This document shows, in pieces, positions 7,603 to 58,890 of a DNA stretch of 59,501 nt (position 1 is the stretch's first letter; every line of letters starts with the position of its first letter). Location: positions 1-59,501 of the forward strand of contig JBHLME010000008.1 in NCBI GenBank assembly GCA_048938445.1, written 5' to 3'. The notes under the pieces were generated by a model. It did not search any database. It had not been told where the DNA came from and was given only the letters and a program-made list of their open reading frames with translations. This DNA is from Promethearchaeota archaeon. GTDB lineage: Archaea > Asgardarchaeota > Lokiarchaeia > Sigyniarchaeales > SOKP01. Position numbers and translations under genes: made by a program.

Positions 7603-7616
7603 GATTTTTATATTAA

Positions 7617-7889: not shown

Positions 7890-8094
7890 TTTTCCTGAAA
7901 CCACTTCCTAAATTAACTTAATGTAATATATATATTTTAAATCTCGATTACTACTTCAAGATACATAGAGTTTCATTGATAATAAAGTAAACGTTTAATA
8001 AGTTTTAATTTATTCCTATTAATTTGGCAATAACGTTTATTATGAGAAATTAAGAGAACATCATAAAGTGATTATACTTCTCAAATAAGGACAT

Positions 8095-8313: not shown

Positions 8314-8359
8314 TATAAGAAAAATACTTCTATTATTTTATTAAAATCTTTCTATAATT

Positions 8360-9340: not shown

Positions 9341-9403
9341 GATTACTATAAATTATAAACCTAATAAAAACTGTTGTTATTAACTCGCAAGTAAAACTTA
9401 TGT

Positions 9404-9775: not shown

Positions 9776-9974
9776 TTAAAAAGTGACATTTATTTTAAGT
9801 TACTTTCAACCTTGGTTTATTATAAAATTACATGTTAAATCATTAACTATGTTAAAATCTTTATGAATTACCACAAATGGAAAGATTTTAATTCTTATTT
9901 AAGAGGAAAGTAAGGGAAGTGAAATTAATCTTTAAAAATTTATTATAAATCATAGATAATGGAGAATAAATGAT

Positions 9975-10823: not shown

Positions 10824-10997
10824 TAATTTCTGAATTATCAACAATTTAAATATAATTTTTGAAATATTAGATGCGTAATATATTTTACTAGTCTTTATAT
10901 AAGAGAGTTTTTCATTAAAAATGACTATTAAAAAATTTTTATTTTTTAATAAAAAGAGAAGAATTATAAAAATGTTAGAATAAATATGTTATTAGTA

Positions 10998-27448: not shown

Positions 27449-27488
27449 TTTAATCTAGACTAATTGTAATTTAAAAATTATATGAATT

Positions 27489-28265
27489 TTATTCATTCAT
27501 TTTATCTTGTGCGATAAGAGCTGCTCCAATCGCACCAGTAAGCTGAGGATATTCAGGGGTTACTATTTCAAAACCTAATTCTACTTCCAAATATTTTTTA
27601 ACAGCAATATTTTGTGCAACACCTCCGCAAAATACTAACAACGGCGCTACTCCAATTCGCTTAGCCATCCCTGCAACTCTTCTTGCTATAGATTTATGAA
27701 TGCCACTGGCAATATCTTGCTTGGAAGTTCCACGAGCAAATAAAGAAATAACTTCGCTTTCAGCAAAGACCGTGCATGTGGAGCTTATTGCTGCAGGATT
27801 ATTAGATTTCAGAGCTAATTCTCCTATGCTTTCTATTGGGACTTCTAATGCATGAGCCATGACTTCAAGAAAACGACCAGTTCCTGCAGCACATTTATCA
27901 TTCATTTGAAAATCAATGACATTTCCGTTCTTTTTTGAAATTAAAATTGCTTTACTATCTTGACCTCCAATATCAATGACTGAGTGTGCCTCTGGAAAAA
28001 AAAATTGAACTCCTTTAGCATGAGCCGTGATTTCAGTAATCCGGTCATCTGCTATATCTATTGAATTCCTTCCATATCCCGTAGACATTACAAAAACATC
28101 GCTACGTTTTAAGTTATTTTTTTCTAGTAGGTCATTAAATAAATTGTTTCCAATTCTTTTAAAATCATACGTAGATCTATCAATCCGATGATCAATCATC
28201 TCTCTATCATTCATTAAAACAAGTTTTGATGCTAAAGAACCAATATCAATTCCAATTGTTATCAA
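27489..28265 (-). CDS. 2-hydroxyacyl-CoA dehydratase activator (HgdC/BadF ASKHA ATPase)
   Basis: GIDIGS, TGYGR, DIGGQDSK, MNDKCAAGTGRFLE, SSTCTVFAESE. Confidence 0.93.
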   Translation of the reverse strand: MITIGIDIGSLASKLVLMNDREMIDHRIDRSTYDFKRIGNNLFNDLLEKNNLKRSDVFVMSTGYGRNSIDIADDRITEITAHAKGVQFFFPEAHSVIDIGGQDSKAILISKKNGNVIDFQMNDKCAAGTGRFLEVMAHALEVPIESIGELALKSNNPAAISSTCTVFAESEVISLFARGTSKQDIASGIHKSIARRVAGMAKRIGVAPLLVFCGGVAQNIAVKKYLEVELGFEIVTPEYPQLTGAIGAALIAQDKMNE

Positions 28266-31146: not shown

Positions 31147-31494
31147 ATGAACAATAAAAAGAGAAAATTTTTACTATGGTTTGGGTTAATACAAGTATTG
31201 CTAGTTATAATTGCCTATTTATCAATTAATGGGCTTATACCATTTGCAGCAGCTCAAGATCCAAATGCTGATGCACTTTCTTCAGGAATTATAGCAATAG
31301 CAGCCTCTATTGCAGTCGGACTTTCTGTTTTGGGAGCGGGTCTTGCCCTTAAAACGGTTGCAACTGCAGCAATCTCTGCAATAACCGAACGTGAAGGATC
31401 TTTTGGACAAATTCTAGTACTTGTAGCTTTAGCAGAAGCCTTGGCCATTTATGGGGTTGTAGTGGGAATTTTATTGTTGCAAAAAATTCCATGA
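31147..31494 (+). CDS. atpK: A-type ATP synthase proteolipid subunit K (c)
   Basis: Single hairpin with ion-binding Glu in ALAEALAIYG, plus an extra N-terminal hydrophobic segment. Confidence 0.92.
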   Translation: MNNKKRKFLLWFGLIQVLLVIIAYLSINGLIPFAAAQDPNADALSSGIIAIAASIAVGLSVLGAGLALKTVATAAISAITEREGSFGQILVLVALAEALAIYGVVVGILLLQKIP

Positions 31495-31536
31495 TACTTT
31501 TTTTAGACATAACTATAAGAAGAAACTAAAAGGTGT

Positions 31537-32595
31537 TTGAAAAAAACGAGTATTGTAGTTCCAAGTTATGCTTATACATATGTAAGACTTGGTTATTTAA
31601 AAAATTTGATCATGGATGATTTTACTCTACAAAAATTAAGTAGATTTAAAGACATAAAAGATTTAATTGATTATATTAAGCCATATTATCCTGGATTAAA
31701 GATTAAAGCGTTTACGATTGAAGAAATTGAAAAAGCCATATATCACATCTATATAAAGCTTATTGGGCGGATATTGCTTTTATCCCCAGATAACTTGAGA
31801 AATTTTTTAAGAGTCTATCTATTAAGATATGAAATAATGAACGTAAAATTCTTGATACTTGGAGCTATAGTTGGGATGAGAGTCCATGAAAAAGAGATTA
31901 ACATTAATTTTTTAGTTGAAAAATATTTAGAAAATACCAATTTCATAAACAATTTAATTAGTATTCAAAACTTAGAGGAAATACAGTTATATATGAAAGG
32001 AACAAGATATGAACGAGCGGTAAAAGAGGGAATTTTATATTTCAATAATACAAATGAAATATTTGTTTTAGAATCTTCTTTAGATCGCATTTATTATGAA
32101 TCATTAATAAGAGAAAAAAGATTTTACAACAAAAAAGAAAAATTAATACTTCATACTTTTATTGATTTTACTACTGAAATTTATAATATTAATATGATAT
32201 TTCGTGGAATAATAAATAATATCAATAAAGATTTATTAGCACAATTTATTATCCATAATTATCTGTTTTTAGATAATCAGAAAATATTGGAATTACTCTA
32301 CCAAAAAAACACTGAAGATTTTATAAGTTTAATCGAGTTTTATTTCAAAAAAGATGGGAGAATTAACATATTTTTGAATAAAATTCAAATCAAGAGAGAA
32401 CATTTTATTTGGTCAATTGAAGCATTATATCTCGAATATTTTTTTAAAAAACATCTGATAATTCTTGGTGATATCGAATTATCAACAATTTTCAGAATCA
32501 CAGAATTATTACTTAAAAAGGAAAAGGAAATCAAATTCAATATATTGCCTAATGTTGTAAAAATTATCCACAAAAAGTATGAACAATTACAGTAA
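31537..32595 (+). CDS. atpC: A-type ATP synthase subunit C
   Basis: YAYTYVR, YEIMNVK, ESSLDRIYY, EIYNINMIFRG; size and operon position. Confidence 0.85.
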   Translation: MKKTSIVVPSYAYTYVRLGYLKNLIMDDFTLQKLSRFKDIKDLIDYIKPYYPGLKIKAFTIEEIEKAIYHIYIKLIGRILLLSPDNLRNFLRVYLLRYEIMNVKFLILGAIVGMRVHEKEININFLVEKYLENTNFINNLISIQNLEEIQLYMKGTRYERAVKEGILYFNNTNEIFVLESSLDRIYYESLIREKRFYNKKEKLILHTFIDFTTEIYNINMIFRGIINNINKDLLAQFIIHNYLFLDNQKILELLYQKNTEDFISLIEFYFKKDGRINIFLNKIQIKREHFIWSIEALYLEYFFKKHLIILGDIELSTIFRITELLLKKEKEIKFNILPNVVKIIHKKYEQLQ

Positions 32596-32626
32596 AAGTT
32601 AAAATAATAGATCGGATTAAAATAAA

Positions 32627-32941
32627 ATGAAAATTTTCGAATGGGTTAAAGAAATTGAGGATGTTTATGATAAACTGATTGAAAAGGCAAAAATTGAAAA
32701 TGAAAATAGCCTTGAGGCATTTAAAAAACAACAACTGGAAACTATAAATTTAAACCAGAAAAAAAATAGTGAATTTATGGATTCCACTATGAAAATTATT
32801 TCAGAGGAAATTAATAATGGATTGAAAAAACACACAGATGAATTTACCAAAGCTCTTGAAAATGTTAAAAATGATTATTATAAGAATAAAAAAAAGTTAA
32901 TAGAGAAAATTATAAATCAATTTGGGTTTGATTTTGAATGA
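32627..32941 (+). CDS. atpH: A-type ATP synthase subunit H (G)
   Basis: 104-aa charged helix (VKEIEDVYDKLIEKAK) within the operon. Confidence 0.7.
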   Translation: MKIFEWVKEIEDVYDKLIEKAKIENENSLEAFKKQQLETINLNQKKNSEFMDSTMKIISEEINNGLKKHTDEFTKALENVKNDYYKNKKKLIEKIINQFGFDFE

Positions 32942-33258
32942 AAGGACAGAAAATTCATGTAATAGGTGTTGATGATATAAATATTTTATTTAGACTTTTG
33001 GGTATAAAAGGGACAGTTATTAAAGATGCTTCTGAATTTTTACACATATTTAAGGAAAAAATTAATAACCCCGCTATTGGAATGATAATCGTTGCTCTCA
33101 ATTTACCTCAAGAGTTAATCGAATATATTATAGACTTTAAATTAAATAATATTTCACCATTTGTTTATTATTTACCTGATATTTTTCAACCAAATATCGA
33201 AAAAGAAGATTTATTTTTAGATCAAATTATTAAATCAATTAAAAAAATCATTGCATAA
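32938..33258 (+). CDS. atpF: A-type ATP synthase subunit F
   Basis: KIHVIGVDD...FRLLGI...IGMIIV...LP. Confidence 0.88.
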   Translation: MKGQKIHVIGVDDINILFRLLGIKGTVIKDASEFLHIFKEKINNPAIGMIIVALNLPQELIEYIIDFKLNNISPFVYYLPDIFQPNIEKEDLFLDQIIKSIKKIIA

Positions 33259-33321
33259 TGGGTAATAAAAATTTCTGAAGAAACAAATTTAAAAGAGAGT
33301 TTTGGAAATTTAGGTAAATTT

Positions 33322-34002
33322 ATGATTGATAAAGCTCAAGATGAAATAAAGAAAATGAATCAGAAGCTTTTATTTCAGAAAGCAGAATTAAAAAAAAAAT
33401 ATAAAACTGATTTAATCTCGGATATTCGAGAAACTCAAAAATCATTCGAAGAATATTGTGAACAATTTTTTAATGACTCTTTAAACTCTACTTTAATAGA
33501 ACTGAATAACAAATTTCTAAATATAAAGCGAGAAATAGTAGAAGAATTAAATAATGAAATAATTAAATTAACAAAAGAAAAAATCAAAAGTGATTATTCG
33601 AAATATATAAATTACCTAATTGAAAAGATTAAAGAAGTTATAAAATTAATTAATGTAAATTTTCCTGCTAGCATAATATTTAACTCGAGAGATTATGAAT
33701 ATTTTCATAATGAAAATAACTTCAAAAAAATTCAGGATTTATTTAAGTCATCTCTAAAAATTAAAAAAAGTCCCAATGATTTTATAGGAGGTTTTATAAT
33801 GGAAATTTCTAAGCTAAATCTCTCCTATAATAGTACTATTGAAAATATATTAAATAAGAATTCTTCTCTTTTTGAAATTGAGCTCTCAAAGATCATCTCA
33901 GATGAAAAAATTGAAAAAATTAAAAATAGTTTAACTGAGTTTATTAACAATCAAAAAATTGAAATAAACATAATAAAAAGTCAATTAAATAACTATGAAT
34001 AA
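33322..34002 (+). CDS. atpE: A-type ATP synthase subunit E (may start at ATT 33271)
   Basis: N-terminal coiled coil, DFIGGFIME..SYNSTIE; lies between F and A. Confidence 0.8.
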   Translation: MIDKAQDEIKKMNQKLLFQKAELKKKYKTDLISDIRETQKSFEEYCEQFFNDSLNSTLIELNNKFLNIKREIVEELNNEIIKLTKEKIKSDYSKYINYLIEKIKEVIKLINVNFPASIIFNSRDYEYFHNENNFKKIQDLFKSSLKIKKSPNDFIGGFIMEISKLNLSYNSTIENILNKNSSLFEIELSKIISDEKIEKIKNSLTEFINNQKIEINIIKSQLNNYE

Positions 34003-35845
34003 ATTGAAGAATAATCCTAAATTTGGCTACATTTCAGCAATTAATGGATCCTTAATTGAAATTAAAGGTTTTGAAGATGAGATTCAAATTCATAATATGA
34101 TTGAAGTAGTTGAACATAATATTATTGGTGAGGTAATACAGATCTATTCAAATCGTGTAATTGCACAATGTTTTGAAAATACTAATCTGTTAAAATTGAA
34201 AGATAAAGTGATTGATCTTAAAGAACCGATATCTATGGAATTAGCACCAGGTTTATTAGCAAACATTTTTGATGGTATTCAAAGACCATTAGAAAGTATT
34301 TTTTCTAAATTAAAAGGGAATGGTTTTTTAGAGAGAGGTATAAAATTACCTTCATTATCGCGTACAAAGAAATGGCACTTCGTTCCAATGAAAAAAAAAG
34401 GAGATAAAGTCGAAGCAGGAGATATTATTGGTACAGTTCAAGAAACACTTCTTATCAAACATAAGGTAATGATTCCCCCAGGTATTTTTGGTAATTTAAC
34501 TTTTATTGCAAATGAAGGAGATTTTACAATAGTTGATGAAATTTATAAAATAAAAGATTCTACAGAAGAAAAATCATATAGTATGTTACAGAAATGGCCT
34601 ATAAATATTAATAGACCATATAAAAAAAGAATTAAACCCATGGAACCTCTAATAACTGGATTGAGAGTTATAGATTTATTATTTCCACTTGCAAAAGGTG
34701 GGACTGTTGCGGTACCAGGAGGTTTTGGAACAGGGAAAACCGTTATTCAGCAGAGTTTAGCTAAATGGAGTGATGCTGATGTAATCATTTATTGCGGTGT
34801 TGGTGAGCGAGGTAATGAAATTGCAGATGTGTTATCCCAGTTTAAAGAAATTATAGATCCTAAGAGCGGTCGCCCTTTATTAGAAAGGATTGTTATTATT
34901 GCAAATACTTCTAATATGCCTGTTTCTGCTCGAGAGGCAAGTATTTTTTCTGGAGTCACAATAGGAGAATATTATAGAGATATGGGTTATAATGTTGCTG
35001 TTTTAGCAGATAGTACTTCACGTTGGGCAGAAGCTTTAAGAGAAATCTCCGGTTTATTAGAAGAAATGCCCGCAGAAGAGGGTTATCCCGCATATTTACC
35101 TTCTAAACTTTCAAGCTTTTACGAAAGAGCTGGTTTAGTTCATATTTTGGGTAGTCATCAATCTGATAGCGAAAGATTAGGTTCCTTGACAATAATAGGT
35201 TCAGTTTCACCTCCCTCAGGAGATTTTAGTGAACCTGTTACAGCTACTACTAAACGTTTTGTGCAAGCATTTTGGGCTTTGGATGCCGCTTTAGCTTATT
35301 CGAAACATTATCCCGCAATTAATTGGTTACGTTCTTATTCTAATTATCCAGACTATCTTTCTGATTGGTGGAAGGAAAGAGACTATGAATGGGAGGAATT
35401 GAAAAATATGGATTGGAATAAATGTAGAATTCAAATAAATACGATATTATCAACCGAAAATGAATTAAAAAATATTACTCAATTAATTGGTAAGGAAAAT
35501 TTACCAGAAGACCAACAATTAATCCTTTTTATTGGAAATCTAATTAGAAATAGTTTTCTCATTCAAAGTGCATTTGATAAAATTGATTCATTTACTCAAA
35601 TTAATAAATTATTATTTCATATCAAATTATTACTTCTCCTTTATGATGAAGGAAAAGAGCTTCTTAAATCTGGATTTTTAATGGAAGATATCACAAAATT
35701 TGGAGTAATTGATGAAATTCTAAGAATTAGTACATCCATACCTAATGAAGAATATGAAAAAATCTTAAAAATAAAAAATAAATTGCTAAAAGAAATTGAA
35801 TCATTAAAAATGATGTTTGGTGAAAGTCGTGAGCGTCTCATATAG
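33995..35845 (+). CDS. atpA: A-type ATP synthase catalytic subunit A
   Basis: [53 protein letters not shown]; no intein. Confidence 0.97.
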
Positions 35846-37220
35846 TAAAATAGAACAAATTATTGGTCCCTTAATATTTTTAAAAAATCAACATGATATC
35901 GAATATGGGGAGCGTGTTCTAATTCAAACCAGTAATGGACAAATAAAAAATGGAGAAGTCATAAAAATTAACCAAGAATTTATTGTCATTGAAGTTTTTG
36001 AAGATACTATGGGTTTGTCTGCAAGTAATTCAGAAATTATTTTTACCGGAGAACCCTTTAAAGTCGAAATATCTAAAGATATGTTAGGAAAGACATTTAA
36101 TTCATTTGGAAAACCAATTGACGTCAAAACGAAAGAAATCTTAGATCTAAACATCGTTGCTGATGTGGTAAGAGACATAAATGGGTCGCCAATTAATCCC
36201 TTTGCTCGCGAATATCCCTCTGATGTCATACAAACTGGTATTTCTGTAATAGATGGACTATTCACTTTAATAAGAGGTCAAAAATTGCCAATTTTTAGTG
36301 GTCAAGGAATTCCTCATAATAAATTAGCAGCTCAAATTGTTACTCAATCAAAAGTTTTAACTGAGGAATCTTTTCTAATTATTTTTTGTGGGATTGGAAT
36401 TATTCAAGATGAGGTCTCTTATTTCTTAGAACGGTTTGAAAAAAGCGGAAATCGAGAACGTATTATTTCATTTATAAATTTTGCGGATGATAGCATAATG
36501 GAAAGGTTAATAATTCCGAGGGTTGCTTTAACAACTGCAGAATATTTTGCTTTCGAAAAAGACATGCACGTACTTGTAATATTAACTGATATGACAAATT
36601 ATGCTGAGGCATTAAGAGAATTAAGTTCCGCAAAAGAAGAAATTCCAAGTAGAAAAGGATATCCAGGATATTTATATTCTGACTTTGCATCAATATTTGA
36701 AAGGACTGGAAAAATAAAAGGTAAAAAAGGATCTATAACACAAATTCCGATTTTAACAATGCCAAATGATGATATCTCACATCCAATTGCTGATACAGCT
36801 GGTTATATAACCGAAGGGCAATTAGTTTTAGATAGAAATTTATATAAAAAAGGCATTTATCCTCCATTTGAAGTTTTAGCGTCTATTTCTAGATTAATGA
36901 AAGATGCTATAGGAAAAAAAAATACTAGGGAAGATCATGCTGACGTAAGTTCCCAATTATTGGCTTCATATTCAAGTGCACTTGAAGTTAAAGATCTTAT
37001 CTCCATTATAGGAGAAGATGGATTAAATCTTGAACAAAAAGCTTTAATTAAATTTGGGCAATTATTTGAGAATGAATTCTTAAATCAAGGATATTCTGAG
37101 AATCGTAATTTTGAAAAGACATTAAATATTGCTTGGAATGTACTTTCAGTCTTACCATTAAGTCAACTTTTTAGAATTCATGAGAAATTTATTACTAACT
37201 ATTATAAAGAAATGGTGTAA
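35817..37220 (+). CDS. atpB: A-type ATP synthase subunit B
   Basis: [44 protein letters not shown]. True start may be GTG 35829. Confidence 0.97.
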
Positions 37221-37224
37221 TTTT

Positions 37225-37887
37225 ATTAGTTTTCGAGAAGTTAAACCTACTAAAGCAAATCTTATAAATTTACAAAAACGCTTGAGTTTTGCAAGAAGAG
37301 GAAAAAATTTTTTAGAGTTTAAAAGAGAAATGTTAATGTTTCAAGTTAAAAAAAATTATTCTGATTATGTATCTTACAGAAATGAATTTATTCAACTATT
37401 TAAGAATACATTGAAAAAATTAAATCAAACCTATAAAGAAATGGGCAAAAACAATGTGATTATGATTAGTAAAATAAGCACTATTCAATATAACCCTAAA
37501 ATCGATATAAAACATGTCAGAGACATTGGAATAAACGTTTCAAAAATAAATTATGAATTAATACAAGAAAAAGAGCTCCCTGCGTATTCATTTGAAAATT
37601 CCAGCCATTATTTAGATGAATTAATGGTTTTATTAAAATTTTTTTTTGAAAGACTAATCAAATTAGCAGAAAAAGAGGATTCAATGCTTACTTTTGCGTA
37701 TCATTTTAAAAAAATAGATCGACGTATAAATGGATTAGATAATATTATTATTCCTAACTTACAAGAGGATATTAACAAAATAAAAAAAATTTTAGAAGAA
37801 TTAGAGCGAGAGAGTTTTGTTCGTTTAAAAAAAACTAAAAATTTAATAAATAAAAAACTTGCTGCGAAAATAGGAAATAAACAATGA
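37225..37887 (+). CDS. atpD: A-type ATP synthase subunit D (probable ATT start; ORF track gives 37180)
   Basis: VKPTKANL, LEFKRE, RRINGLDNIIIP, LEELERESFVRLK. Confidence 0.92.
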   Translation: MSFREVKPTKANLINLQKRLSFARRGKNFLEFKREMLMFQVKKNYSDYVSYRNEFIQLFKNTLKKLNQTYKEMGKNNVIMISKISTIQYNPKIDIKHVRDIGINVSKINYELIQEKELPAYSFENSSHYLDELMVLLKFFFERLIKLAEKEDSMLTFAYHFKKIDRRINGLDNIIIPNLQEDINKIKKILEELERESFVRLKKTKNLINKKLAAKIGNKQ

Positions 37888-40127
37888 AAGATTCTAATTT
37901 AATGTGTTTGTTTAAGGTCATAATACTAAATGATGAAAAAGATAACTTTTTGAATTATCTAGCAGGATTGAATTTAGTTCATATTAAAGAAAATAAAAAA
38001 ACTACAGTTAAGGAGAAAATTACTGATAAAAATACTTTAGAGCAAAAGGTCAGAAAATTAAGTGATAATTTAAATTCATTTTTTGATAAAATTGGAATTT
38101 CAGAGAATACTTTTGAGAATTATAAAATTAAAACAGAATCAAGATCAAAATTTAACGTTAAAGATTTAGGTGAATTGATATATCATATTTCTGATGAATT
38201 AAATTTTTTTATAAATAGATATAATGAATTAGAAAGATATATTGCAATAGCTAAGATCGAATTAGAGAACTTGACATTAATCAAAAAAAGTTACATCTTT
38301 CTAGAAAAATTTAATTTGAAGAGGAGTAGTTTATCTGTCTTTAATCATTTAGATTTTAAAGTTTATTCAACTTTTAAGAAAAATATTGAAATTTTAAATC
38401 ATCTATTAAATATTACTGAATTTCCAAATGTTTATCAAATTTCCTCAATTTCAGATGAAAGTATCGTATTTTATGTTATCTATCCAAAAGATCATGAAGA
38501 AGAATTAAAAAATAGGATAAATATAATTCATGCTGAAGAAATACCTATATTAAAAAAGTACCTAACAACTGAGGGAATAAATTTTACCAGAATTGTAAAT
38601 GAATTAGAGATTGTAGAAAATACGCTAGCCAAAGATGAAAAAGAAATAAGAAAAATTAGAGACGATAACCTGCATAAATTTGCTGCATTTAATGAAATAA
38701 TAAATAATATTGAACAATATCTATGGGCAGAAAAACAGTTTGAAGAATACTCATCACAATATTCTGCTATTGAATTTTATGCCCCTTTAAGAGTTAAGGA
38801 TAAATTAATTTATGGTTTAAATTCAAAATATAAAGAAAAAATCCAAATAGAATCTTCAATCTTAGCAAAACATCCTGTTAAACTCAAAAAAACAAAAAAC
38901 AAGGAAATAAAAATTGATAAGATAAATAAAGTAAAAAGTGCAGAAACATATTCTAATTTGGATGACATTGAAGAAATTGATTCAAGTCAAGAAAAATCAA
39001 CTCCAACTTTAATAAAGAGACACTCATTTTTTATAAGACCATTTGAAAGTCTAACGAAAATGTATGGTGTTCCCTCATATGCAGAGGTTGATCCAACACC
39101 ATTTTTAGCGATAACATTTCCTGTTTTATTTGGCTTAATGTTTGGAGATATTGGACATGGGATGGTACTTATCATTGCCGGATTACTTGGGGCCTTGATT
39201 TTTAAGAGGAAAAAAGGAAAGACCTTTTATAACTTTTGTTGGATTATTTTTTACTGTGGTTGGGGTGCCATTTTAGGAGGATTATTATATGGTGAATTTT
39301 TCGGTGGTGAATACATATTTAATTTAAAACTAATAGGAATTTGGGAAAATCCTTTAGGAGAAAATTTAACTTATACTCTTTGGTTCGTTATTTTGGTAGG
39401 AGTATTTCATATAAATCTGGGATGGACCATACAAGCTTTTAATTATTGGAGACAACATCGTAAATATATGGCTTTTTCTGATTCAATAGTAAAGATTTTG
39501 CTTCTTTCTGGAGGAACTTATCTTTTATTTTTCTATGGTTTTGATATTAATTCTTGGACAAGCTTTCCTTACCCTATTTTATTACCTTTAATTCCAGGAT
39601 TGTTACTAATAGTTTTAAAGCCATTAGGTAAAGTTTTGGGTGTATCCTATTTAAAAACAGAATCATTTGGAAGTTTAATGGGTGAAGGATCATTAGAAGC
39701 ATTTGAAACGCTATTATCCGTTCTTAGTAATGCGGCATCCTATATAAGATTGTTAGCTTTAGCTTTAGCTCATCTAGCATTACTGATCACGATTGAAGCA
39801 CTGGTAAATCTGATTTCAGGAGGGGGAATTGCCGAGATTTTCAGAATTATTGTCCTGATCCTTGGAAACTTTCTTGTGATTTTAATAGAAGGATTACTTG
39901 CTTTTATTAATAATTTAAGGTTGCATTTTTATGAGTTTTTCTTCAAATTCTTTAAAGGTTCTGGAATTGAATTCACTCCCTTTTTTTTAAATAATCAATA
40001 TTCTGAAATCGTGTTTAAAGTTGAAGAGGATATCGTTTCGGAAGAAATTGAAAAGGAAATTGTTTCCAAAATAGATGAGAGTTATGTTATGGATGCAAAA
40101 AAATATCTTAACGATAAATTTTCCTAG
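37884..40127 (+). CDS. atpI: A-type ATP synthase subunit I (a)
   Basis: YGVPSYAEVDPTP, FGLMFGDIGHG, essential Arg in SYIRLLAL, LRLHFYEFF. Confidence 0.96.
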   Translation: MKDSNLMCLFKVIILNDEKDNFLNYLAGLNLVHIKENKKTTVKEKITDKNTLEQKVRKLSDNLNSFFDKIGISENTFENYKIKTESRSKFNVKDLGELIYHISDELNFFINRYNELERYIAIAKIELENLTLIKKSYIFLEKFNLKRSSLSVFNHLDFKVYSTFKKNIEILNHLLNITEFPNVYQISSISDESIVFYVIYPKDHEEELKNRINIIHAEEIPILKKYLTTEGINFTRIVNELEIVENTLAKDEKEIRKIRDDNLHKFAAFNEIINNIEQYLWAEKQFEEYSSQYSAIEFYAPLRVKDKLIYGLNSKYKEKIQIESSILAKHPVKLKKTKNKEIKIDKINKVKSAETYSNLDDIEEIDSSQEKSTPTLIKRHSFFIRPFESLTKMYGVPSYAEVDPTPFLAITFPVLFGLMFGDIGHGMVLIIAGLLGALIFKRKKGKTFYNFCWIIFYCGWGAILGGLLYGEFFGGEYIFNLKLIGIWENPLGENLTYTLWFVILVGVFHINLGWTIQAFNYWRQHRKYMAFSDSIVKILLLSGGTYLLFFYGFDINSWTSFPYPILLPLIPGLLLIVLKPLGKVLGVSYLKTESFGSLMGEGSLEAFETLLSVLSNAASYIRLLALALAHLALLITIEALVNLISGGGIAEIFRIIVLILGNFLVILIEGLLAFINNLRLHFYEFFFKFFKGSGIEFTPFFLNNQYSEIVFKVEEDIVSEEIEKEIVSKIDESYVMDAKKYLNDKFS

Positions 40128-50970: not shown

Positions 50971-52335
50971 CTACATTTTAATTATCAACTTTTCTATATT
51001 TGATACTAATTTTTGAGCTTTCTCAATGTCATCTGATTCCCCAGAGAGAAGGATTATATTACGAGATAATGCAGTTTTTATAGTAACACAAACACCATTA
51101 CTAATGATTTTAATTTCGTTTAAAATGTCGTGATATTTAAATCCATTATTCTCTGCCATGGTTCTCAAGCGATCATGGATATTATCAACCAATTCTTTTG
51201 AAACAGGAACCGATTTATTAATTTTTTTCCCTTTCGGAAAACCTCTCGTAAGAGAACTGATTAGATCTTCTTGAAGACTCATAATTTCAAGTATTTTTAG
51301 TAATATAAAATTTCCATCACTTATAGGAGCTAATTGAGGAAAATAAAACTTCAACGTATCAGCAGCAGCAAAACAAGCTCTATCTTCCCTAATTCTTCTT
51401 GAAATCTCTCCAGGATAATTCTCCACCTGTTTTATTGGATATCCACTTTCTTCAATATATTTTTTTGCAACAGGAGAAAGTGAAGGTGTGGTAATTATTG
51501 TGTTTGATTTAGATTTTATAATCCGGTCATCATATGCTACAAAAAGCATCAATAAATCTTCAAAACTAATTTCCAAACCATTTTCATCTATGACAAGTAT
51601 CCTTGACCCATCAATATCAAAACACACTCCAAGATGACTATTAGATGCTTTTACTATATCAGCAACATTTCTTATCGTGTTTATATTTGGAATGGGAAAA
51701 CCACTTCTTTGACGATAATGTGTATTTAATGCAATGATTTCTACTCCAATTTCATTGATTAATATCGGTGTAATCTTTCCGGTAGGAGAATATGAGCAAT
51801 CGACAACAATTTTTAAATTTGCACTCTTTATTTTCTTTTTATTAACAAATTGTTCTAAAGATTTAATATAAACATCAACGGTTTGAGGAATAGCATTAAT
51901 CTGTCCAATATCTTTTGGATCAACTCTCCGAACATCTTCTGGATTTGAGGTCATGATCTTTTCTATTTCCATTTTATCTATTTCTATACCTCCAGCATCA
52001 ACCAATCTTACGTATATTCCTTCAGATGAATGTCCTCCTGAAAAAAATACTCCTCCACTGGCACCAAATCTACGAATGGTAAATTGCAGCATTGGAAATG
52101 TACAATCAGATAGATTTAAAATGTTTACTCCCGTTGACATTACTCCTGCTGTAAAAGCTCTTTTTAACATGCGACTATCATTGTGATAATCTCTCCCCAT
52201 TACAATAGATTCTCCTTCTTCGAACATGCTGCCAAAAATGGACCCTAAAGAGCTTGATATCTCTGGTGTAAATACGATATTTGCTTTTGCTAAAATCCTA
52301 CCATTCTTAACTAATTGATCTAAATTTTGACTCAT
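50971..52335 (-). CDS. Phosphohexomutase-fold protein with degenerate active site
   Basis: ANIVFTPE, GRD..SRMLKRA, IVVDC. The usual SHNP reads GGHSS and DxDxDR reads DIDGSR. Confidence 0.8.
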   Translation of the reverse strand: MSQNLDQLVKNGRILAKANIVFTPEISSSLGSIFGSMFEEGESIVMGRDYHNDSRMLKRAFTAGVMSTGVNILNLSDCTFPMLQFTIRRFGASGGVFFSGGHSSEGIYVRLVDAGGIEIDKMEIEKIMTSNPEDVRRVDPKDIGQINAIPQTVDVYIKSLEQFVNKKKIKSANLKIVVDCSYSPTGKITPILINEIGVEIIALNTHYRQRSGFPIPNINTIRNVADIVKASNSHLGVCFDIDGSRILVIDENGLEISFEDLLMLFVAYDDRIIKSKSNTIITTPSLSPVAKKYIEESGYPIKQVENYPGEISRRIREDRACFAAADTLKFYFPQLAPISDGNFILLKILEIMSLQEDLISSLTRGFPKGKKINKSVPVSKELVDNIHDRLRTMAENNGFKYHDILNEIKIISNGVCVTIKTALSRNIILLSGESDDIEKAQKLVSNIEKLIIKM

Positions 52336-52507: not shown

Positions 52508-54226
52508 ATGACAGATAAAATCATTGGTTCATTTTCATTTGTTTTACATTCTCACTTACCTTGGGTCATAAATCATGGGATTTGGCCCCATGGGACATCA
52601 TGGGTTAATGAGGCGGCAGCTGAAACTTATTTACCCTTATTAATGGAGCTTTATAAATTAAGGGATGAAGGATACCATCCAAAACTAACTATTGGTCTAA
52701 CACCTATATTATGTGAGATGTTGAGAAATCAATCATTCATGAATGGCTTTATTGGGTATTTAGACGAGAAAGTATCTGCTGCTCTACACGACTATGATGA
52801 TTTCACGGAAAACATGTATGAAGAAGGTAGGATCAGGTTGACCAAATGGTGGGAAGAATACTATGAAAGAATGAAAGATCTCTTTGTTCACAGGTTTAAT
52901 AGAGATATCATCGGTGCTTTTAAGATTTTGCAGGATGATGGTCTATTAGATATCATAACAAGTGGAGCAACACATGGATATAGTCCCTTACTCTCTAAAG
53001 ATAGCTCGATTGATGCTCAGTTTAAAACGGGTGTAGATAATTATAAAAAACACTTTGGAATGGCCCCAACAGGAGTTTGGCTTCCTGAATGTGCGTATCG
53101 ACCGGGTTATAAATGGAAAAATCCCATTACAAAAGAAGAATATGATCGACCGGGTGTGGAATATTTCCTTGCGAAGAACGGATTGAAGTATTTCTTCATT
53201 GATACTGCAATGTTGTTAGGTGGAAAATCACAAGGAGTATATGCTGCGAGATTTCCTTTATTGAAAGAATTATGGAAGCAATTTGAATCTCAATATGAAG
53301 AAATCCCTACTTCTTTTGAAAAATCCCAATATGAAGCATACTTAGTTTCTACGAGTCCATCGACTCCCAATCCCGTAGGTTTTTTCACGAGGGATGAAAA
53401 AACGGGAATTGTTGTCTGGAGTGGGGAACATGGGTATCCAGGATGTGCAGAATATTTAGACTTTCATAAGAAACATTATCCCGGTGGATTGAGGTACTGG
53501 AAAGTCACGGGAGCAAAAATAGATCTAGGGGAAAAGATGTTATATTGGCCTGATGATGTCCCTAGAAAATTGGATGAAAATGGCAGCCATTACGTTAATT
53601 TAATTAAAGACATTCTAAGAGGCCATCGTGATAAATTTGGTACTAATGGAATAATTATCGCACCATACGATTGCGAACTTTTTGGGCATTGGTGGTTTGA
53701 AGGAACTTGGTGGTTAGCACGAGTTCTACGTTGGCTCGAAGATGATCCAGAAGTTAATCTGACAAACACGCGATTATATCTTGAACAAAATCCTCCAAAT
53801 AAAGTTGTTTCGCCGATTGAAGGAAGTTGGGGGCAAGGTAGTGGGCATTGGGTGTGGCTTAATGATTGGACTGTCTGGACATGGGAAAGAGTCTATGAAT
53901 GCGAAGCCAAAAGCGAAGAATTAGTTGCTCGACTGAAAAACTCAAATGATGGCAATACTCAAAGAATTCTCAAGCAAATGGTAAGAGAATTATTGCTACT
54001 AGAAAGTTCTGATTGGCAATTCTTAATAACAACGTGGTCCGCAAGAGATTATGCTGAAAATAGAGTAGCTGTACATTATGAAAATTTCCATAGATTATAT
54101 AACATGGTATCGAAATATAGTCAAGGTGAATACATTGATGAGGGTGAATGGCACTTTTTAGGTTTACTAGAAAACAATGATGGAATTTTCATGGATATAG
54201 ATCTTGAACCATTCGCGAAAAAGTAA
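52508..54226 (+). CDS. GH57 1,4-alpha-glucan branching enzyme (DUF1957 type)
   Basis: VLHSHLPWV, ETYLPL, ATHGYSPL, WLPECAY, YDCELFGHWWFEG, LLLESSDWQF. Confidence 0.93.
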   Translation: MTDKIIGSFSFVLHSHLPWVINHGIWPHGTSWVNEAAAETYLPLLMELYKLRDEGYHPKLTIGLTPILCEMLRNQSFMNGFIGYLDEKVSAALHDYDDFTENMYEEGRIRLTKWWEEYYERMKDLFVHRFNRDIIGAFKILQDDGLLDIITSGATHGYSPLLSKDSSIDAQFKTGVDNYKKHFGMAPTGVWLPECAYRPGYKWKNPITKEEYDRPGVEYFLAKNGLKYFFIDTAMLLGGKSQGVYAARFPLLKELWKQFESQYEEIPTSFEKSQYEAYLVSTSPSTPNPVGFFTRDEKTGIVVWSGEHGYPGCAEYLDFHKKHYPGGLRYWKVTGAKIDLGEKMLYWPDDVPRKLDENGSHYVNLIKDILRGHRDKFGTNGIIIAPYDCELFGHWWFEGTWWLARVLRWLEDDPEVNLTNTRLYLEQNPPNKVVSPIEGSWGQGSGHWVWLNDWTVWTWERVYECEAKSEELVARLKNSNDGNTQRILKQMVRELLLLESSDWQFLITTWSARDYAENRVAVHYENFHRLYNMVSKYSQGEYIDEGEWHFLGLLENNDGIFMDIDLEPFAKK

Positions 54227-54239: not shown

Positions 54240-55394
54240 TCAAATCATTTCGCCCAAATTAAGCGTTTCATCAATTATCTGTGCATTGTCACTAATTTTG
54301 CTAAAAGGTGGAATTATCGCCTTCCTAAGGAGGACATTAGCCCCGATTTCACAATTATTACATATTATTGACTCTTCCACGTTTGAACCGGGTCCTATTT
54401 TAACATCATCCCAAATTACACTCTTCTCTATGATAGTGTCTTCCCCAATGATTACATTGCTTCCAATAGAAGATAAACTCTTAATATTAATCTTGTTATT
54501 TAATCTGACATTTTCTCCAAAACATGTTGGTCGTTCAATTGTAATGTCTTGACCAGAGTCTATTATTCCCATGACAAAAATTTCATCATATTCCTTACCA
54601 TTCGGAGTAATTGGCCACGCATATTTACGTAACAAGTCCCAATTTGCCCACATATATGTTTGAGAGTTACCACAATCAAGCCAATAATAATTTTTTACAA
54701 ATCCATATAAATCATATTCATTTTCAAGTAAGTAAGGAAATGCTTCTCCACCAAAATCCATGATATTTGAATTTTCTTGGAGTATACCATTAATTGATTT
54801 ATTGAATGTGTAGATACCCGTATTAATGATGTTTGTATGTAAAAATAGATCCGCTCTTTGTGCCATACTACTCAGATATAACTCCATTGGTGCTGGTTTT
54901 TCTAGAAATAGATAAATTTTTCGATTATTATCAAGTAAAACAACTCCATATTGAGAAGTATGACTCTCTACGGTTTTCATTGAAATCGTGGCTATGCCGC
55001 CCTTCTCAGTATGAAACTCCATGAATTTTTTCATCGGGAGGTTCGTTACAATATCTGCCATTGAAATTACTACCTTTTCTGAATCTACATGATCGATTAA
55101 CAACCTGTATGCATCTGCAGTGCCTTTACTATCATGAATCTCCCACTCAAGTTCGACATCATCCAATATATCTGGAGTCCATGTTTTTTTTATATATGTT
55201 TCCATTTTTTCACCCATATATGCTAAGGCCAAAGTAATGTGCTTAATATCAGCATATATTAAATGAGCTATGGCATAATCTACCATTGGTTTATTAGTGA
55301 CTTTAACTAATGGTTTTGGAACTAAAGAAGTGAGGGGCATTAATCTTGTTCCTTTTCCTCCCGCTAAAATGATTGCAGACCATTCTCTTGCCAT
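54240..55394 (-). CDS. Sugar-1-phosphate nucleotidyltransferase with left-handed beta-helix tail
   Basis: LAGGKGTRLMPLT..PKPL, FLEKP, INTGIY, YWLDCG, hexapeptide repeats. Confidence 0.92.
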   Translation of the reverse strand: MAREWSAIILAGGKGTRLMPLTSLVPKPLVKVTNKPMVDYAIAHLIYADIKHITLALAYMGEKMETYIKKTWTPDILDDVELEWEIHDSKGTADAYRLLIDHVDSEKVVISMADIVTNLPMKKFMEFHTEKGGIATISMKTVESHTSQYGVVLLDNNRKIYLFLEKPAPMELYLSSMAQRADLFLHTNIINTGIYTFNKSINGILQENSNIMDFGGEAFPYLLENEYDLYGFVKNYYWLDCGNSQTYMWANWDLLRKYAWPITPNGKEYDEIFVMGIIDSGQDITIERPTCFGENVRLNNKINIKSLSSIGSNVIIGEDTIIEKSVIWDDVKIGPGSNVEESIICNNCEIGANVLLRKAIIPPFSKISDNAQIIDETLNLGEMI

Positions 55395-55507: not shown

Positions 55508-55912
55508 TTATTTAACTTCATCTAGCCATTTTTCTGCTTTATAAATACTAGTAAAACATCTTTTTGGAAATAAAGTTTTTTTTGAATATCGTTTTAATGT
55601 TCGCCTGTCAATTATGCGTGGTGGAGATATTTCCGCAACACGTTTAATCCCACTATTTATCAACATTTTCTGGGTTTCAATATGAAGTATATCTAATTCT
55701 GGAGGTGGAGTAATGAAATTAGAAGCATCAATAAGAAGTGTAAAGTTATCATTATCTAATAATTCAATTGCTTTATGAATATCCTCTAAATATTGTGAAA
55801 CTTGGACTAGAGCGCTCCAAAGGCCATTTAAAGTAAGATAAATTCTATTTTTTTCTATATTAATTTCAATTTTATACAGGTCATTAATAGAAATTACTAT
55901 TTTAAATGACAC
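55508..55912 (-). CDS. STAS/SEC14-like (SpoIIAA-like) small protein
   Basis: KNRIYLTLNGLW, FTLLIDASNF, GIKRVAEI, FTSIYKAEKWLD. Confidence 0.65.
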   Translation of the reverse strand: MSFKIVISINDLYKIEINIEKNRIYLTLNGLWSALVQVSQYLEDIHKAIELLDNDNFTLLIDASNFITPPPELDILHIETQKMLINSGIKRVAEISPPRIIDRRTLKRYSKKTLFPKRCFTSIYKAEKWLDEVK

Positions 55913-56216: not shown

Positions 56217-57473
56217 CTAATCATCTAATTGAGTAATATCTCTAATCTCAAGAGCTATATCTTCTGGTAATTTACGTGCAACTCGCATGTCATCGGCCAT
56301 CTCTGCTCCTCCAATAATTTCGTGAGGGATGATGTCACCAAACATATGAAAGTCAGCGTCATAACCGAATGGACACGAATTAAAAATTATATTCCTATTA
56401 GATTCTATTGATAAGTCATCAAGGGCTTTAAAAATTAGTTTAAGTGATTTAGCTAAATCAAAAATTTGATTTATTTTGAGATTCGAAAACCTTCTTAGAT
56501 GTTCATGAGGATAGAATCTAAGATGATAGTTACGTAAGGGACTACCTGCAGCATAGAATGTCCAAAATTCACTTTTTAATACTAAACGACCATCTTCGTG
56601 ATCAGTCGAACATAAACGACAAGTTTTCATCTCTTTAAATGCATTCAAATATCCTGCTAGTCTTGAACCGTGTCCATCTCCATTTAAATCAATATATACT
56701 TGACTATGAATCCTTGGTTGGGATCCACCTACTTTCTTCCCAATATTAAAAAAGGGCATTACTAAAATATCATAATAATCTCGATTTATCGCTTCTTCTA
56801 CAGAATAAAGAATTGCTGCTTTCATTGAAGAGAATATTCCAGCAATTACATCTTCTGGTATTAATCTTAAACAAGATGCGGGATAATAATGTCGGGAAAT
56901 AGTAATTAAATTAATTCCAATTGATATTTTTGAGTTAGGTGGTAATTGTTTTTTTACTGATGTCATAATTTCCTCATCAACTACCCGCGCCATAGAAGGA
57001 AATCTATTAATTAAAGTAACCGCTTTGCATGAATTTGATAATGGCTTAATTTTATGAGGTTCATCACTAAATGGGTTATCTCGCCTCTTTTCATCCTCGG
57101 TTATAATAATAGTATTTCCATCTCGAAATATTTCTCCATCATCACTAAACAAGGCTTTTCCTTCGGTAATGGAAACAAATACATCATTTAATTTTTCAGT
57201 AAGCATTTCGGAACAATCTAGTTGCTCAACACTGTCATCTATACTAATTGGTCGGGACGCTCTTATTGGTGATAGATAAGAAAAATGACCTGAAAATCTC
57301 TCCTTCTTTCGAAGTCCAAAGCTTTTTGTCGTTATCACTGCTGTGGATAGAGGATCCCATCGTTTGAGAGGTATTTCATTGATTGTTTTGAAGTTCTCCT
57401 TCTTAATTATACCCCATTCCATGAATTTTAATGGAGCATTTTTTTTTTCTTTTTCATTGGAATTATTTGTCAC
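56217..57473 (-). CDS. GalT-like (HIT superfamily) nucleotidyltransferase
   Basis: R-W-D-P-L, INRFPS, FFNIGKKVGGSQPRIHSQ, CRLC, GGAEMA..VARKLPED.A. Confidence 0.8.
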   Translation of the reverse strand: MTNNSNEKEKKNAPLKFMEWGIIKKENFKTINEIPLKRWDPLSTAVITTKSFGLRKKERFSGHFSYLSPIRASRPISIDDSVEQLDCSEMLTEKLNDVFVSITEGKALFSDDGEIFRDGNTIIITEDEKRRDNPFSDEPHKIKPLSNSCKAVTLINRFPSMARVVDEEIMTSVKKQLPPNSKISIGINLITISRHYYPASCLRLIPEDVIAGIFSSMKAAILYSVEEAINRDYYDILVMPFFNIGKKVGGSQPRIHSQVYIDLNGDGHGSRLAGYLNAFKEMKTCRLCSTDHEDGRLVLKSEFWTFYAAGSPLRNYHLRFYPHEHLRRFSNLKINQIFDLAKSLKLIFKALDDLSIESNRNIIFNSCPFGYDADFHMFGDIIPHEIIGGAEMADDMRVARKLPEDIALEIRDITQLDD

Positions 57474-57488: not shown

Positions 57489-58376
57489 CTAATTTGATTT
57501 AGAATTTATTAACTGAACACCCACTTCAATAACTTCTTTAATTTTTGCTAGTTTACTAATTATTGCTTCTAAAACTAGTTTACTCGTATCGATATAGACC
57601 TCATAAATGCATTTATTTCCTTCCTGACAAATACCTGTAGTAAAAACTAATGATAAATCTTTACTATATTTTGAAAATAATTCAGATATTTCTTGTATGA
57701 TTGAAATTGTCATTTTGTCCTTAAAAATAACTTTAAGATTGAAAATTTCTTTCGCATCAACAGGAATTATATCTAATTTTATTACTTTTCCTCTAGTGCG
57801 ATATGCAAAAAAGAAATTTCTTTTAGCGATAGATTTTAATTGGTTTAAAATGTCATTAGATAGTTTAATTTGTTTTAGCTGTTTAAGTTCCTTAAATGTA
57901 AAAAGCTGACCTATAGTTTCAATTGGCTTAATTGATAGAATCTTATATGTATTATCAAACTCATCACTTAAAATTTCATGATATTTTTGAATTTCTTCTC
58001 TTACTTCTTCATTTACGTTAGTTTCTATGTATAGTGCTTTATAAATCTCTGGAATTTTATTTAATTTCTCTATAAAACGAATAAATATTTTTTCATAACT
58101 TGTATAATCTGGATCCTCTTCAGAACAAATAGCTGTTATCATTAAACTTTCTTTATGACCACGAGCCCATTTAGAATTCAAGCTAAATGTATAATTTGCC
58201 GTTATTACGTCTTGAGGAAAAGTATGAATGAAAAAACCTCTATCATCTCTATCAAGCAAGGTTTTTATCTCGTTTAAAATATTTAAATTCTCGTTTTCTT
58301 CATTCAATAAATCATTTGGAACTGTTAAAAATATCCTTGGACCTATTCGTCGATCAAAATAACTTAATATTAGCAT
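57489..58376 (-). CDS. uDENN/longin-like N-terminal domain fused to C-terminal ACT-like domain
   Basis: LILSYFDRRIGPRIFLTVP..ANYTF..WARG..LMITAI, and a C-terminal beta-alpha-beta-beta-alpha-beta pattern. Confidence 0.6.
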   Translation of the reverse strand: MLILSYFDRRIGPRIFLTVPNDLLNEENENLNILNEIKTLLDRDDRGFFIHTFPQDVITANYTFSLNSKWARGHKESLMITAICSEEDPDYTSYEKIFIRFIEKLNKIPEIYKALYIETNVNEEVREEIQKYHEILSDEFDNTYKILSIKPIETIGQLFTFKELKQLKQIKLSNDILNQLKSIAKRNFFFAYRTRGKVIKLDIIPVDAKEIFNLKVIFKDKMTISIIQEISELFSKYSKDLSLVFTTGICQEGNKCIYEVYIDTSKLVLEAIISKLAKIKEVIEVGVQLINSKSN

Positions 58377-58599
58377 TTGGACAAAAAATTAGAAAATTTG
58401 AATCATATAACTTATATTCATTAATTAAGATACTTATTTTTAAATAGTTATTGTCTAGAACATAAAAATATTCATTTGGACTTGATAAAATCATTCAATC
58501 CATCAATAAAAAAATAAAATAAAAAAGAAGTGAGATCTTTTTAAAAACTATTTGTTTTTTTTATAACTTATTTAGGTTATATAAAAAACTGTGTAATTT

Positions 58600-58890
58600 T
58601 TATGCCTCCCTTAAGATTTTGTAAGTTTTGAATTCTGTAACTGGCTCATCATTCTCATCCTTACTTGAAACGGGAATACGAACAAAATTCTTGTCATCAA
58701 AATTTTCGATCTCAGGGGCACTCACTTGCCATTTTTGCATGTTTCGAGCTAATTTTAATTCTTTTAAGAGAAAATCTCTTACAGCACATCGAATTAGTTC
58801 TGATCGTGAGGGATAAAGTCCATTTTCCCCAACTAGCTTTGATATTGCATTTATATAACTTTCTGGAACATTTACAGTGACTATTTTCAT
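58600..58890 (-). CDS. Ribbon-helix-helix (CopG/Arc/MetJ) transcriptional regulator
   Basis: MKIVTVNVPESYINAISKLV..GLYPSRSELIRCAVRDFL. Confidence 0.9.
   Translation of the reverse strand: MKIVTVNVPESYINAISKLVGENGLYPSRSELIRCAVRDFLLKELKLARNMQKWQVSAPEIENFDDKNFVRIPVSSKDENDEPVTEFKTYKILREA

Follow-up and report, generated by a model that had tools for sequence, protein, structure and literature searches.

The subject of this study is a single gene in a stretch of 59,501 nucleotides (positions 1 to 59,501 of contig JBHLME010000008.1, assembly GCA_048938445.1) from a Promethearchaeota archaeon of the order Sigyniarchaeales; this whole stretch is called the window below. The gene lies on the minus strand at 57489..58376, from an ATG start codon to a stop codon at 57489-57491, and codes for a protein of 295 amino acids (aa), hereafter the target. 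Exactly these limits were given in an earlier reading made from the letters and their open reading frames (ORFs) alone (the sequence-only reading), which had proposed that a uDENN/longin domain is fused to an ACT-like ligand sensor in a metabolite sensor for a small GTPase. Our analyses indicate that the target very probably comprises three parts, a longin domain, an AbrB-like segment and an ACT-like domain. We tentatively favour a role as a sensor-coupled regulator of a small GTPase.

At 22-36% G+C, the window is rich in A and T. Word-seeded searching brought up 19 further proteins that align full-length or almost (E 6.5e-133 to 3.8e-55, 42-73% identity), all of metagenomic or Promethearchaeota origin; the few with names are entered as 'hypothetical protein' from Promethearchaeota metagenome-assembled genomes. 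With a profile of these 19 orthologs, an exhaustive search of 1.84 billion entries retrieved 527 cluster representatives at E<=1e-3, of which 276 also passed E<=1e-10 and 22 passed E<=1e-30. Judged by this conservation, the ORF is a real gene and not a chance reading frame. The source names of 10 family members are limited to 'hypothetical protein', 'PAS domain S-box protein' and '50S ribosome-binding GTPase'. Searches of Pfam, NCBIfam and the PDB sequences with the whole protein gave nothing significant, apart from a weak match to NCBIfam NF006352 (PRK08577) at residues 173-290 (E 0.0014), and the ortholog profile had no significant match among the PDB sequences. No RNA run was present among the 9 runs, from 3 studies, that contain the stretch. 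The domain assignments below draw on an AlphaFold2 model built on the 19 orthologs (mean predicted local distance difference test, pLDDT, 82.5 over the 295 aa), on structural searches and on profile comparisons.

The N-terminal longin domain

Residues 1-147 (57936..58376, minus strand) are predicted to form a longin domain of the FLCN/NPRL2 type (ββαβββαα). In the model, DSSP assigns strands at residues 2-8, 12-19, 47-53, 57-67 and 75-84 and helices at 28-42, 91-106, 111-116 and 123-147. These elements make up the five-stranded antiparallel sheet and the order β-β-α-β-β-β-α-α that characterize longins, with a third helix following. In a structural search against representatives (VIA-align), more than 25 longin-domain chains reached Z>=7.5 over residues 1-150. 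The best match, over residues 1 to ~151, was 6nzd_H of the lysosomal folliculin complex (Z 13.3, root-mean-square deviation (rmsd) 2.4 Å, 136 aligned residues). The subunit is unnamed in the search output, and since its residue numbering runs from 4 to 267, the chain is most likely FLCN itself. Next came a solved Lokiarchaeal longin (8yqg_B, Z 11.4), GATOR1 (8fw5_B, Z 11.3), the SEA complex (8adl_S, Z 10.6), C9orf72-SMCR8 (7o2w_A, Z 9.6), the Lst4 longin (4zy8_C, Z 9.4) and DENND1A (6ekk_A, Z 9.2), with adaptin σ/μ, SNARE and TRAPP longins at lower Z.

Other structural comparisons pointed the same way. Foldseek, a check suggested with the sequence-only reading, returned a GATOR1 chain as best match of the model (E 9.7e-5). 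The ESM Atlas neighbours include eukaryotic clusters annotated with the Pfam families NPR2 (PF06218, TM 0.65-0.74) and Folliculin (PF11704, TM 0.75), together with archaeal clusters carrying Arf/Ras domains (TM 0.73-0.75); PF06218 is also annotated on 19% of one related archaeal cluster, which we regard as a lead only. The fold is thus of the longin kind that the sequence-only reading had deduced from the string ILSYFDRRIGPRIFLTVP, which is found at residues 3-20 and conforms to F-D-x3-G-P-x6-P. The 'uDENN' part of the label applies only insofar as it denotes an FLCN-type longin. No DENN Pfam model matches after the longin, where central DENN and d-DENN domains would be expected, and residues 153-291 fold as the AbrB-like and ACT-like parts.

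Two features of the longin domain stand out by their conservation, which we counted over 169 domain rows from 170 family proteins, considering non-gap rows only. The first is a GP motif, G12-P13 (58338..58343, minus strand), whose residues are the first of strand β2 (residues 12-19) in the model. G12 is a Gly in 160 of 161 rows and P13 a Pro in 155 of 161. The second is R72 (58161..58163, minus strand), a candidate arginine finger in the β4-β5 loop (SKWARG), which belongs to the ARG tripeptide that the sequence-only reading had picked out downstream (A71-R72-G73). It is an Arg in 164 of 165 rows, including all 14 rows from Arf-fused proteins, and is the sole invariant column among 31 diverse N-domains with 24-39% identity to the query. 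Section 2.4 of PMC12290439 places the GP motif where the β1-β2 loop ends or β2 begins, adjoining the arginine finger. This study (Traffic 2025) locates the motif in FLCN, NPRL2, SMCR8 and C9orf72, describes it as missing from non-GAP longins (GAP, GTPase-activating protein), and reports both the GP motif and the arginine finger in Asgard 'FLCN/SMCR8-type' longins.

The AbrB-like and ACT-like half

When residues 148-295 (the C-half) were modelled on their own from an alignment of 38 rows, the pLDDT was 91.7 and the predicted template modelling score (pTM) 0.85. The last part of this model, residues 210-291 (57504..57749, minus strand), is predicted to be an ACT-like, or ferredoxin-like, βαββαβ domain, with strands at 210-218, 241-252, 255-264 and 282-291 and helices at 224-235 and 266-277 (DSSP on the full-length model). 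Fold searches with the C-half covered mainly residues 61-148 of the model, i.e. the ACT-like part. VIA-align matched it to ribosomal protein S6 (Z 11.7), the NikR C-domain (2ca9_A, Z 11.5, rmsd 2.0, 81 aligned), the ACT domain of homoserine dehydrogenase (Z 10.7), the small subunit of acetohydroxyacid synthase (AHAS; 6wo1_B, Z 10.7; 2pc6_A, Z 10.0), TM1266 (Z 10.6) and the ACT domains of aspartate kinase (Z 10.1) and Rel (Z 9.9); ACT domains including that of PGDH lie between Z 9.4 and 10.7. Foldseek listed MgtC-C, TM1266 and NikR first (E 4e-4), with TM values of 0.78-0.81 to NikR when normalised to the NikR chain. The modelled fold is ACT-like/ferredoxin-like, a description that by itself does not separate the S6, ACT and NikR groups.

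The sequence-only reading had assigned this domain to ACT with the help of the string GICQEGNKCIYEVY, which is found at residues 248-261. The fold agrees with that assignment, as the model, VIA-align, Foldseek and the ESM Atlas all concur. Nevertheless, no Pfam ACT model matches the target, the classical D-x-P-G ligand loop is not kept, and the conserved residues are found instead on the β2-β3 hairpin. There, residues 245-259 (57600..57644, minus strand) form the motif FTxGxCxExxxCxYE, a candidate ligand, metal or redox site present in 19 of 19 orthologs. F245, T246, G248, C250, E252, C256, Y258 and E259 are invariant in the ortholog alignment. From the alternation of residues along the predicted strands, T246, G248, C250, E252 and E259 should face one side of the sheet, opposite F245, C256 and Y258.

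Between the longin and ACT-like domains, residues 153-206 (57759..57920, minus strand) tentatively correspond to an AbrB/MazE-like segment (β-[β]-α-β-β). The NCBIfam model NF006352 matches positions 15-134 of the 136-position profile (E 2.8e-4), at 20.9 bits against a family cut-off of 140. A PRK08577-like protein of 135 aa, with the Pfam domains MazE_antitoxin (AbrB-type) and ACT, is encoded in the same genome (L025:1489-1896; such handles denote our own loci). When the C-half was aligned with 27 AbrB-ACT relatives, hhalign gave a probability of 89.7% (E 1.8e-6) over 121 collinear columns spanning both domains. The ACT part alone reached 71.8%, and the AbrB part alone 12.8% (E 0.0022). The ESM Atlas likewise returned an archaeal MazE_antitoxin+ACT cluster (TM 0.63 over residues 166-295) and an ACT_AHAS_ss cluster (TM 0.61).

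The AbrB-like segment that the sequence-only reading had suspected before the ACT fold is thus recovered as a collinear counterpart of the AbrB/MazE part, but is weak when taken alone. Its order of elements fits β-β-α-β-β. No solved AbrB chain was found for residues 148-208 in fold searches dominated by the ACT part, no Pfam AbrB/MazE model matches the target, and the D-x-R-G-R loop that is invariant in the AbrB-ACT family aligns to non-conserved target residues. By profile, the ACT part is at best a distant relative of the ACT family. Taken together, the AbrB-like and ACT-like parts are related to, though diverged from, the free-standing AbrB-ACT proteins of archaea, the NF006352/PRK08577-like group (ESM Atlas TM 0.61-0.63), whose two-domain layout is collinear with the C-half. 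Those proteins keep the D-x-R-G-R and D-x-P-G loops, whereas the target has the CxExxxC motif and an added longin domain.

Relatives, spread and gene neighbourhood

The longin domain has many relatives in other architectures. Among 150 listed relatives, 47 were scanned against Pfam; they were picked mostly by length, so that the sample is biased to multidomain proteins. An Arf-family GTPase directly follows the longin in 12 of the 47, PAS domains are present in 26 and a histidine-kinase ATPase in 11. Others carry GAF, receiver or TPR domains, and 15 of the 47 have no Pfam match at all. The N-domain itself matched no Pfam model in any of them.

The genome of the window (4.6 Mb, 256 contigs) encodes eight paralogous N-domains at E<=3.8e-5, among them a longin-Arf-PAS-PAS protein (L003) and a longin-Arf protein (L007). 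The closest paralog of the target longin is a stand-alone protein of 145 aa (L002:1492-1929, plus strand, contig C28). On the same strand and 155 nt upstream of it, L002:17-1336 codes for a 439-aa protein that joins a Ras/Rab-like GTPase (PF00071, E 6.6e-36) to an ArsR/MarR-type winged helix-turn-helix (wHTH) domain. On contig C94, a 150-aa longin paralog (L006:1414-1866, minus strand) lies ~400 nt from a 156-aa LAMTOR3/MP1-like Roadblock protein (L006:557-1027, plus strand; PF08923, a weak match at E 1.9e-4), and a further Roadblock-sized ORF of 117 aa is found near this longin paralog. Comparable arrangements have been published: the available text of Liu et al. (bioRxiv 10.1101/2020.10.19.343400) describes 'NPRL2-like longin' families, longin-GTPase fusions and fusions to two-component domains, and that of Tran et al. 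reports longin/Roadblock-GTPase fusions in MK-D1.

To map the spread of the full architecture, we used a full-length profile of 291 positions on 301 genomes sampled across the phylum and read domain coverage from the query ranges. Some match to the profile was found in 246 genomes. The full architecture (positions 1 to ~289, E<=6e-97) is present in 19, including the window's own genome, and split over two contig ends in one more, giving 20 of 301. All 20 fall within the order to which the window belongs, in its families f1 and f2. Two genera of f1 (g2, 22 genomes, and g5, 27 genomes) have matches to the N-domain alone. Conversely, 32 listed rows, all of them from another Asgard family, f9, contain the C-half without the longin (positions 150/151-288/289, E about 1e-28 to 1e-30), on ORFs of 141-197 aa. 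Since its C-half also exists free-standing in another family, the target seems to have arisen when a longin common to the whole family was joined, in a restricted lineage, to a small sensor-like module that already existed.

Stand-alone C-half proteins of ~141-148 aa from two loci titled Thorarchaeota (L023 and L024) have the same AbrB-like and ACT-like module as the target (profile E about 1e-30, positions 151-289) and keep the motif as FTTGxCxExNxCxYEVY. They have no longin domain and no nearby longin gene, and their neighbours, an EamA transporter, a ribbon-helix-helix (RHH) protein and an Rpb5 fusion, are unlike those of the target. We rejected the idea of a split gene, with the longin encoded near the stand-alone C-half, as a six-frame search of the two Thorarchaeota loci with the longin hidden Markov model gave no match at E<=10. 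In the Rpb5 fusion (L023:6068-6676 and L024:358-975, both minus strand), an N-terminal Mrr_cat restriction-endonuclease-like domain precedes the Rpb5 C-terminal domain (PF01191), an arrangement that recalls the extra N-terminal domain of eukaryotic Rpb5. The RHH protein, of 185-200 aa (L023:8280-8882 and L024:1963-2520, both minus strand), is encoded convergently after the stand-alone C-half gene; its conserved C-terminal domain, ~130 aa long, matches no Pfam model.

The target gene heads a conserved group of sugar-phosphate, nucleoside diphosphate (NDP)-sugar and glycogen genes. It is followed, 15 nt after its stop codon, by a gene on the same strand for a GalT-like (HIT-superfamily) nucleotidyltransferase of 418 aa (56217..57473, minus strand). 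A homolog of this gene comes next downstream, on the same strand and at 17-92 nt, in all 13 related loci with downstream sequence. The 418-aa protein matches the galactose-1-phosphate uridylyltransferase 6k5z_A of the PDB (E 9.6e-6) and no Pfam model; JGI labels its relatives UDPglucose--hexose-1-phosphate uridylyltransferase. The family is far wider than that of the target, with 300 matches at E<=1e-10, named from Thor-, Heimdall-, Hod-, Odin- and Hermodarchaeota. Its members exceed 60% identity over many Asgard lineages, with ~100 alignment columns that do not vary, among them a C-x2-C...H cluster and the H-x-Q of a HIT-type site, and one locus (L010) has two tandem copies (8906-10189 and 10412-11626). 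A complex prediction of the target with the GalT-like protein, run without controls, scored 0.00, with the mark set at 0.32, and counts neither for nor against a complex.

Further downstream, Pfam and synteny identify an NDP-sugar pyrophosphorylase with NTP-transferase and LbH domains (384 aa, 54240-55394, minus strand), a GH57 branching enzyme (52508-54226, plus strand) and a phosphogluco/mannomutase (50971-52335, minus strand). The NTP-transferase+LbH homolog comes next in all 11 loci that reach far enough, although one of these loci has it in inverted orientation, after the GH57 gene; the branching enzyme is present in four related loci and the mutase in five. A 134-aa ORF at 55508-55912 (minus strand), between the GalT-like and NTP-transferase genes, has no family match and no counterpart in 16 related loci (E<=1e-5), and the two flanking genes are merely 164 nt apart in L009; this ORF could be an insertion peculiar to the genome, or no gene at all.

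Upstream of the target lies a gene for a 96-aa RHH protein, weakly CdrS-like (58600..58890, minus strand; PF01402, E 7.7e-7). Its best NCBIfam matches, to the cell-division regulators CdrS (NF058555, 36 bits against a cut-off of 100) and aCcr1 (17.5 bits against a cut-off of 60), are both below cut-off. An RHH gene is located no more than ~1.1 kb upstream in 11 of the 12 loci that extend far enough in that direction; two of these genes are on the opposite strand. The RHH protein is more conserved than the target, with 92% identity to the copy of L009 and 60-70% to others. Between the RHH stop codon and the ATG of the target, a T-rich tract (~58505-58529) and TATA-like, AT-rich boxes 29-43 nt before the ATG suggest a promoter of the target's own, a weak sign in so AT-rich a genome. 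Elsewhere, the window offers an ordinary housekeeping context: a complete A/V-type ATPase operon (31147-40127, plus strand; subunits c, C/AC39, F, A, B, D and I), purine-synthesis genes (4646-9340) and a 2-hydroxyacyl-CoA dehydratase with its activator (24965-28265).

Possible functions and significance

The reading that we favour, although we would put it at somewhat less than an even chance, is that the target is a sensor-coupled regulator of a small GTPase. In such a mechanism, the longin domain would dock on an Arf- or Rag-like GTPase and, with R72 beside G12-P13, would probably stimulate GTP hydrolysis in the manner of FLCN, NPRL2 and SMCR8. The C-half, AbrB-like and ACT-like, would dimerise the protein and bind a small ligand, a metal or a redox signal at the conserved Cys/Glu hairpin, and that signal would set the availability of the longin face. 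Because the gene heads a conserved sugar-phosphate/NDP-sugar/glycogen operon, the signal would most likely be tied to carbon or energy status. The fusions of paralogous longins to Arf-like GTPases and sensor domains are consistent with the idea of a metabolite sensor for a small GTPase, as indirect support from sequence.

Several points weigh against a GTPase regulator of this kind. Many longins are guanine nucleotide exchange factors or passive platforms, and the eukaryotic longin GAPs act as longin heterodimers with DENN or other domains, while the target has no DENN domain. We know of no Asgard longin for which GAP activity has been demonstrated. None of the 43 other window ORFs scanned matched a GTPase or Roadblock family at E<=1e-5, and the conserved neighbourhood of the related loci contains no GTPase or Roadblock gene. 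The tie of the N-domain to FLCN and NPRL2 is one of fold and motif, not of sequence: no Pfam model matches the N-domain at E<=1, NPR2 (PF06218) and Folliculin (PF11704) included, and a 31-sequence N-domain profile retrieved from the PDB sequences no FLCN, NPRL2, SMCR8 or C9orf72 chain at E<=10, yielding helical chance matches only. As the longin sheet has the strand order 2-1-5-4-3, its β1-β2 and β4-β5 loops share one end, and R72 should accordingly neighbour the GP motif, a placement drawn from general topology; R72 is a putative equivalent of FLCN R164 and NPRL2 R78. For the C-half, the fold is not proof of ligand binding, because ribosomal protein S6 reaches a Z on a par with those of ACT and NikR, and the ACT ligand loop (D-x-P-G, 'kD-iPG' in the family, between β1 and α1) faces a non-conserved 'f--~~tp' in the hhalign alignment. 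GAP activity of Asgard longins is raised as a possibility in the available text of PMC12290439.

In its most complete version, the favoured reading would make the target a self-contained nutrient switch, in which the ACT-like module reads a carbon-status metabolite (a sugar phosphate or an NDP-sugar), or a metal or redox cue, at its Cys/Glu patch and thereby gates an arginine-finger longin GAP on an Arf- or Rag-like GTPase. So full a version is decidedly unlikely. If true, it would tie glycogen and NDP-sugar metabolism to small-GTPase signalling, and the target would represent a one-polypeptide forerunner of the sensor-to-longin-GAP logic that is spread in eukaryotes over CASTOR/Sestrin, GATOR1 and FLCN.

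A possible, if unlikely, alternative is a ligand-responsive transcription factor, whose AbrB-like dimer would bind DNA while the ACT-like domain senses a metabolite and the sugar/glycogen operon is controlled; the longin would then be an extra input, e.g. for the docking of a GTP-bound GTPase, so that this explanation partly overlaps with a GTPase regulator. The collinearity of the C-half with AbrB-ACT proteins, labelled AbrB/MazE/SpoVT DNA-binding proteins in their sources, speaks for it, but the AbrB part alone aligns at low probability, matches no Pfam AbrB/MazE model and lacks a conserved counterpart of the D-x-R-G-R loop. Many orthologs are basic in the helix aligned to the AbrB recognition helix (consensus IIKKL versus IIRKSLGL), whereas the window copy has one Lys only in this recognition-type helix. 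The first place in a conserved metabolic operon is the usual position of a regulator. In addition, coupling of a GTPase to transcription is present in this genome, since the Ras-like GTPase-wHTH gene adjoins the closest longin paralog.

The tight linkage to the GalT-like gene (13 of 13 loci, same strand, gaps of 15-92 nt when the window is included) would also agree with an allosteric regulatory subunit of the GalT-like transferase or of the NDP-sugar pyrophosphorylase, akin to the ACT small subunits of AHAS, which are among the best matches of the C-half. We consider this quite improbable: it leaves the longin domain unexplained, and the GalT-like family is so much more widespread than the full target architecture (20 of 301 genomes) that the enzyme must work without the target in most lineages.

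Finally, a NikR-like metal or redox sensor, in which the Cys/Glu patch would bind a metal or switch redox state, possibly as one half of a split NikR-like pair with the RHH neighbour, is highly improbable despite the invariance of C250, E252, C256 and E259, the high rank of the NikR C-domain among the fold matches and the RHH genes upstream of the target and beside the two stand-alone Thorarchaeota forms, given that C-x-E-x3-C differs from the His/His/Cys(+His') nickel site of NikR, which moreover has its RHH in the same chain and not in a separate gene, that C250 and C256 should lie on different faces of the sheet, and that one Thorarchaeota RHH protein resembles the window copy at E 0.003 and the other not at all, so that the adjacency may be chance. 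NikR is a functional analogy only, an ACT-like sensor coupled to a DNA-binding partner with no sequence kinship to the target. The same applies to CASTOR1-GATOR2-GATOR1, where the ACT-like sensor, CASTOR, is a separate protein with four ACT domains and reaches the longin GTPase regulator through GATOR2.

Among the closest known systems are other longins. FLCN (in FLCN-FNIP), NPRL2 (in GATOR1) and SMCR8 (in C9orf72-SMCR8), the best structural matches to residues 1-151, share with the target the GP motif at the start of β2 and a conserved arginine ~60 residues further on. Unlike them, the target has no DENN or NPRL2 C-terminal domain, no identified second longin partner and no match at the sequence level. 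The Asgard 'NPRL2-like' and 'FLCN-SMCR8-type' longins of Liu et al. and PMC12290439, the latter covering 15 Asgard longins, are alike in fold, GP motif, conserved arginine and phylum. As far as the available parts of these studies go, the published proteins are fused to GTPases and to PAS/HK-type domains, and are described neither with an AbrB-like and ACT-like module nor in a sugar operon. NPRL2/FLCN-type Asgard longins with GP motif and arginine finger, and their GTPase and two-component fusions, are thus already in print. We did not find the longin + AbrB-like + ACT-like architecture, the CxExxxC motif, the stand-alone C-half relatives or the GalT-like/NDP-sugar/glycogen operon in the literature searched by keyword, although Fig. 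5c of Liu et al. or Data S1 of the Traffic paper may depict the architecture. The fusion and its gene context appear to be new.

These features give the target a bearing on how nutrient signalling came to use longins. Eukaryotic nutrient signalling to mTORC1 runs via longin-domain GAPs, GATOR1 and FLCN, that are controlled by separate metabolite sensors, and to our knowledge Asgard archaea are the only prokaryotes with relatives of these longins. For the origin of sensor-controlled longin-GAP logic, the target provides a compact, soluble, single-gene test case. Should an archaeal GTPase respond to the arginine and GP motif of the target, and should a ligand bound at the Cys/Glu site alter that response, sensor-gated longin GAPs would predate eukaryotes. 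If the protein binds DNA instead, it would represent a route from longin/GTPase signalling to transcription. Either outcome would provide the first function for a large, uncharacterised family of Asgard longins.

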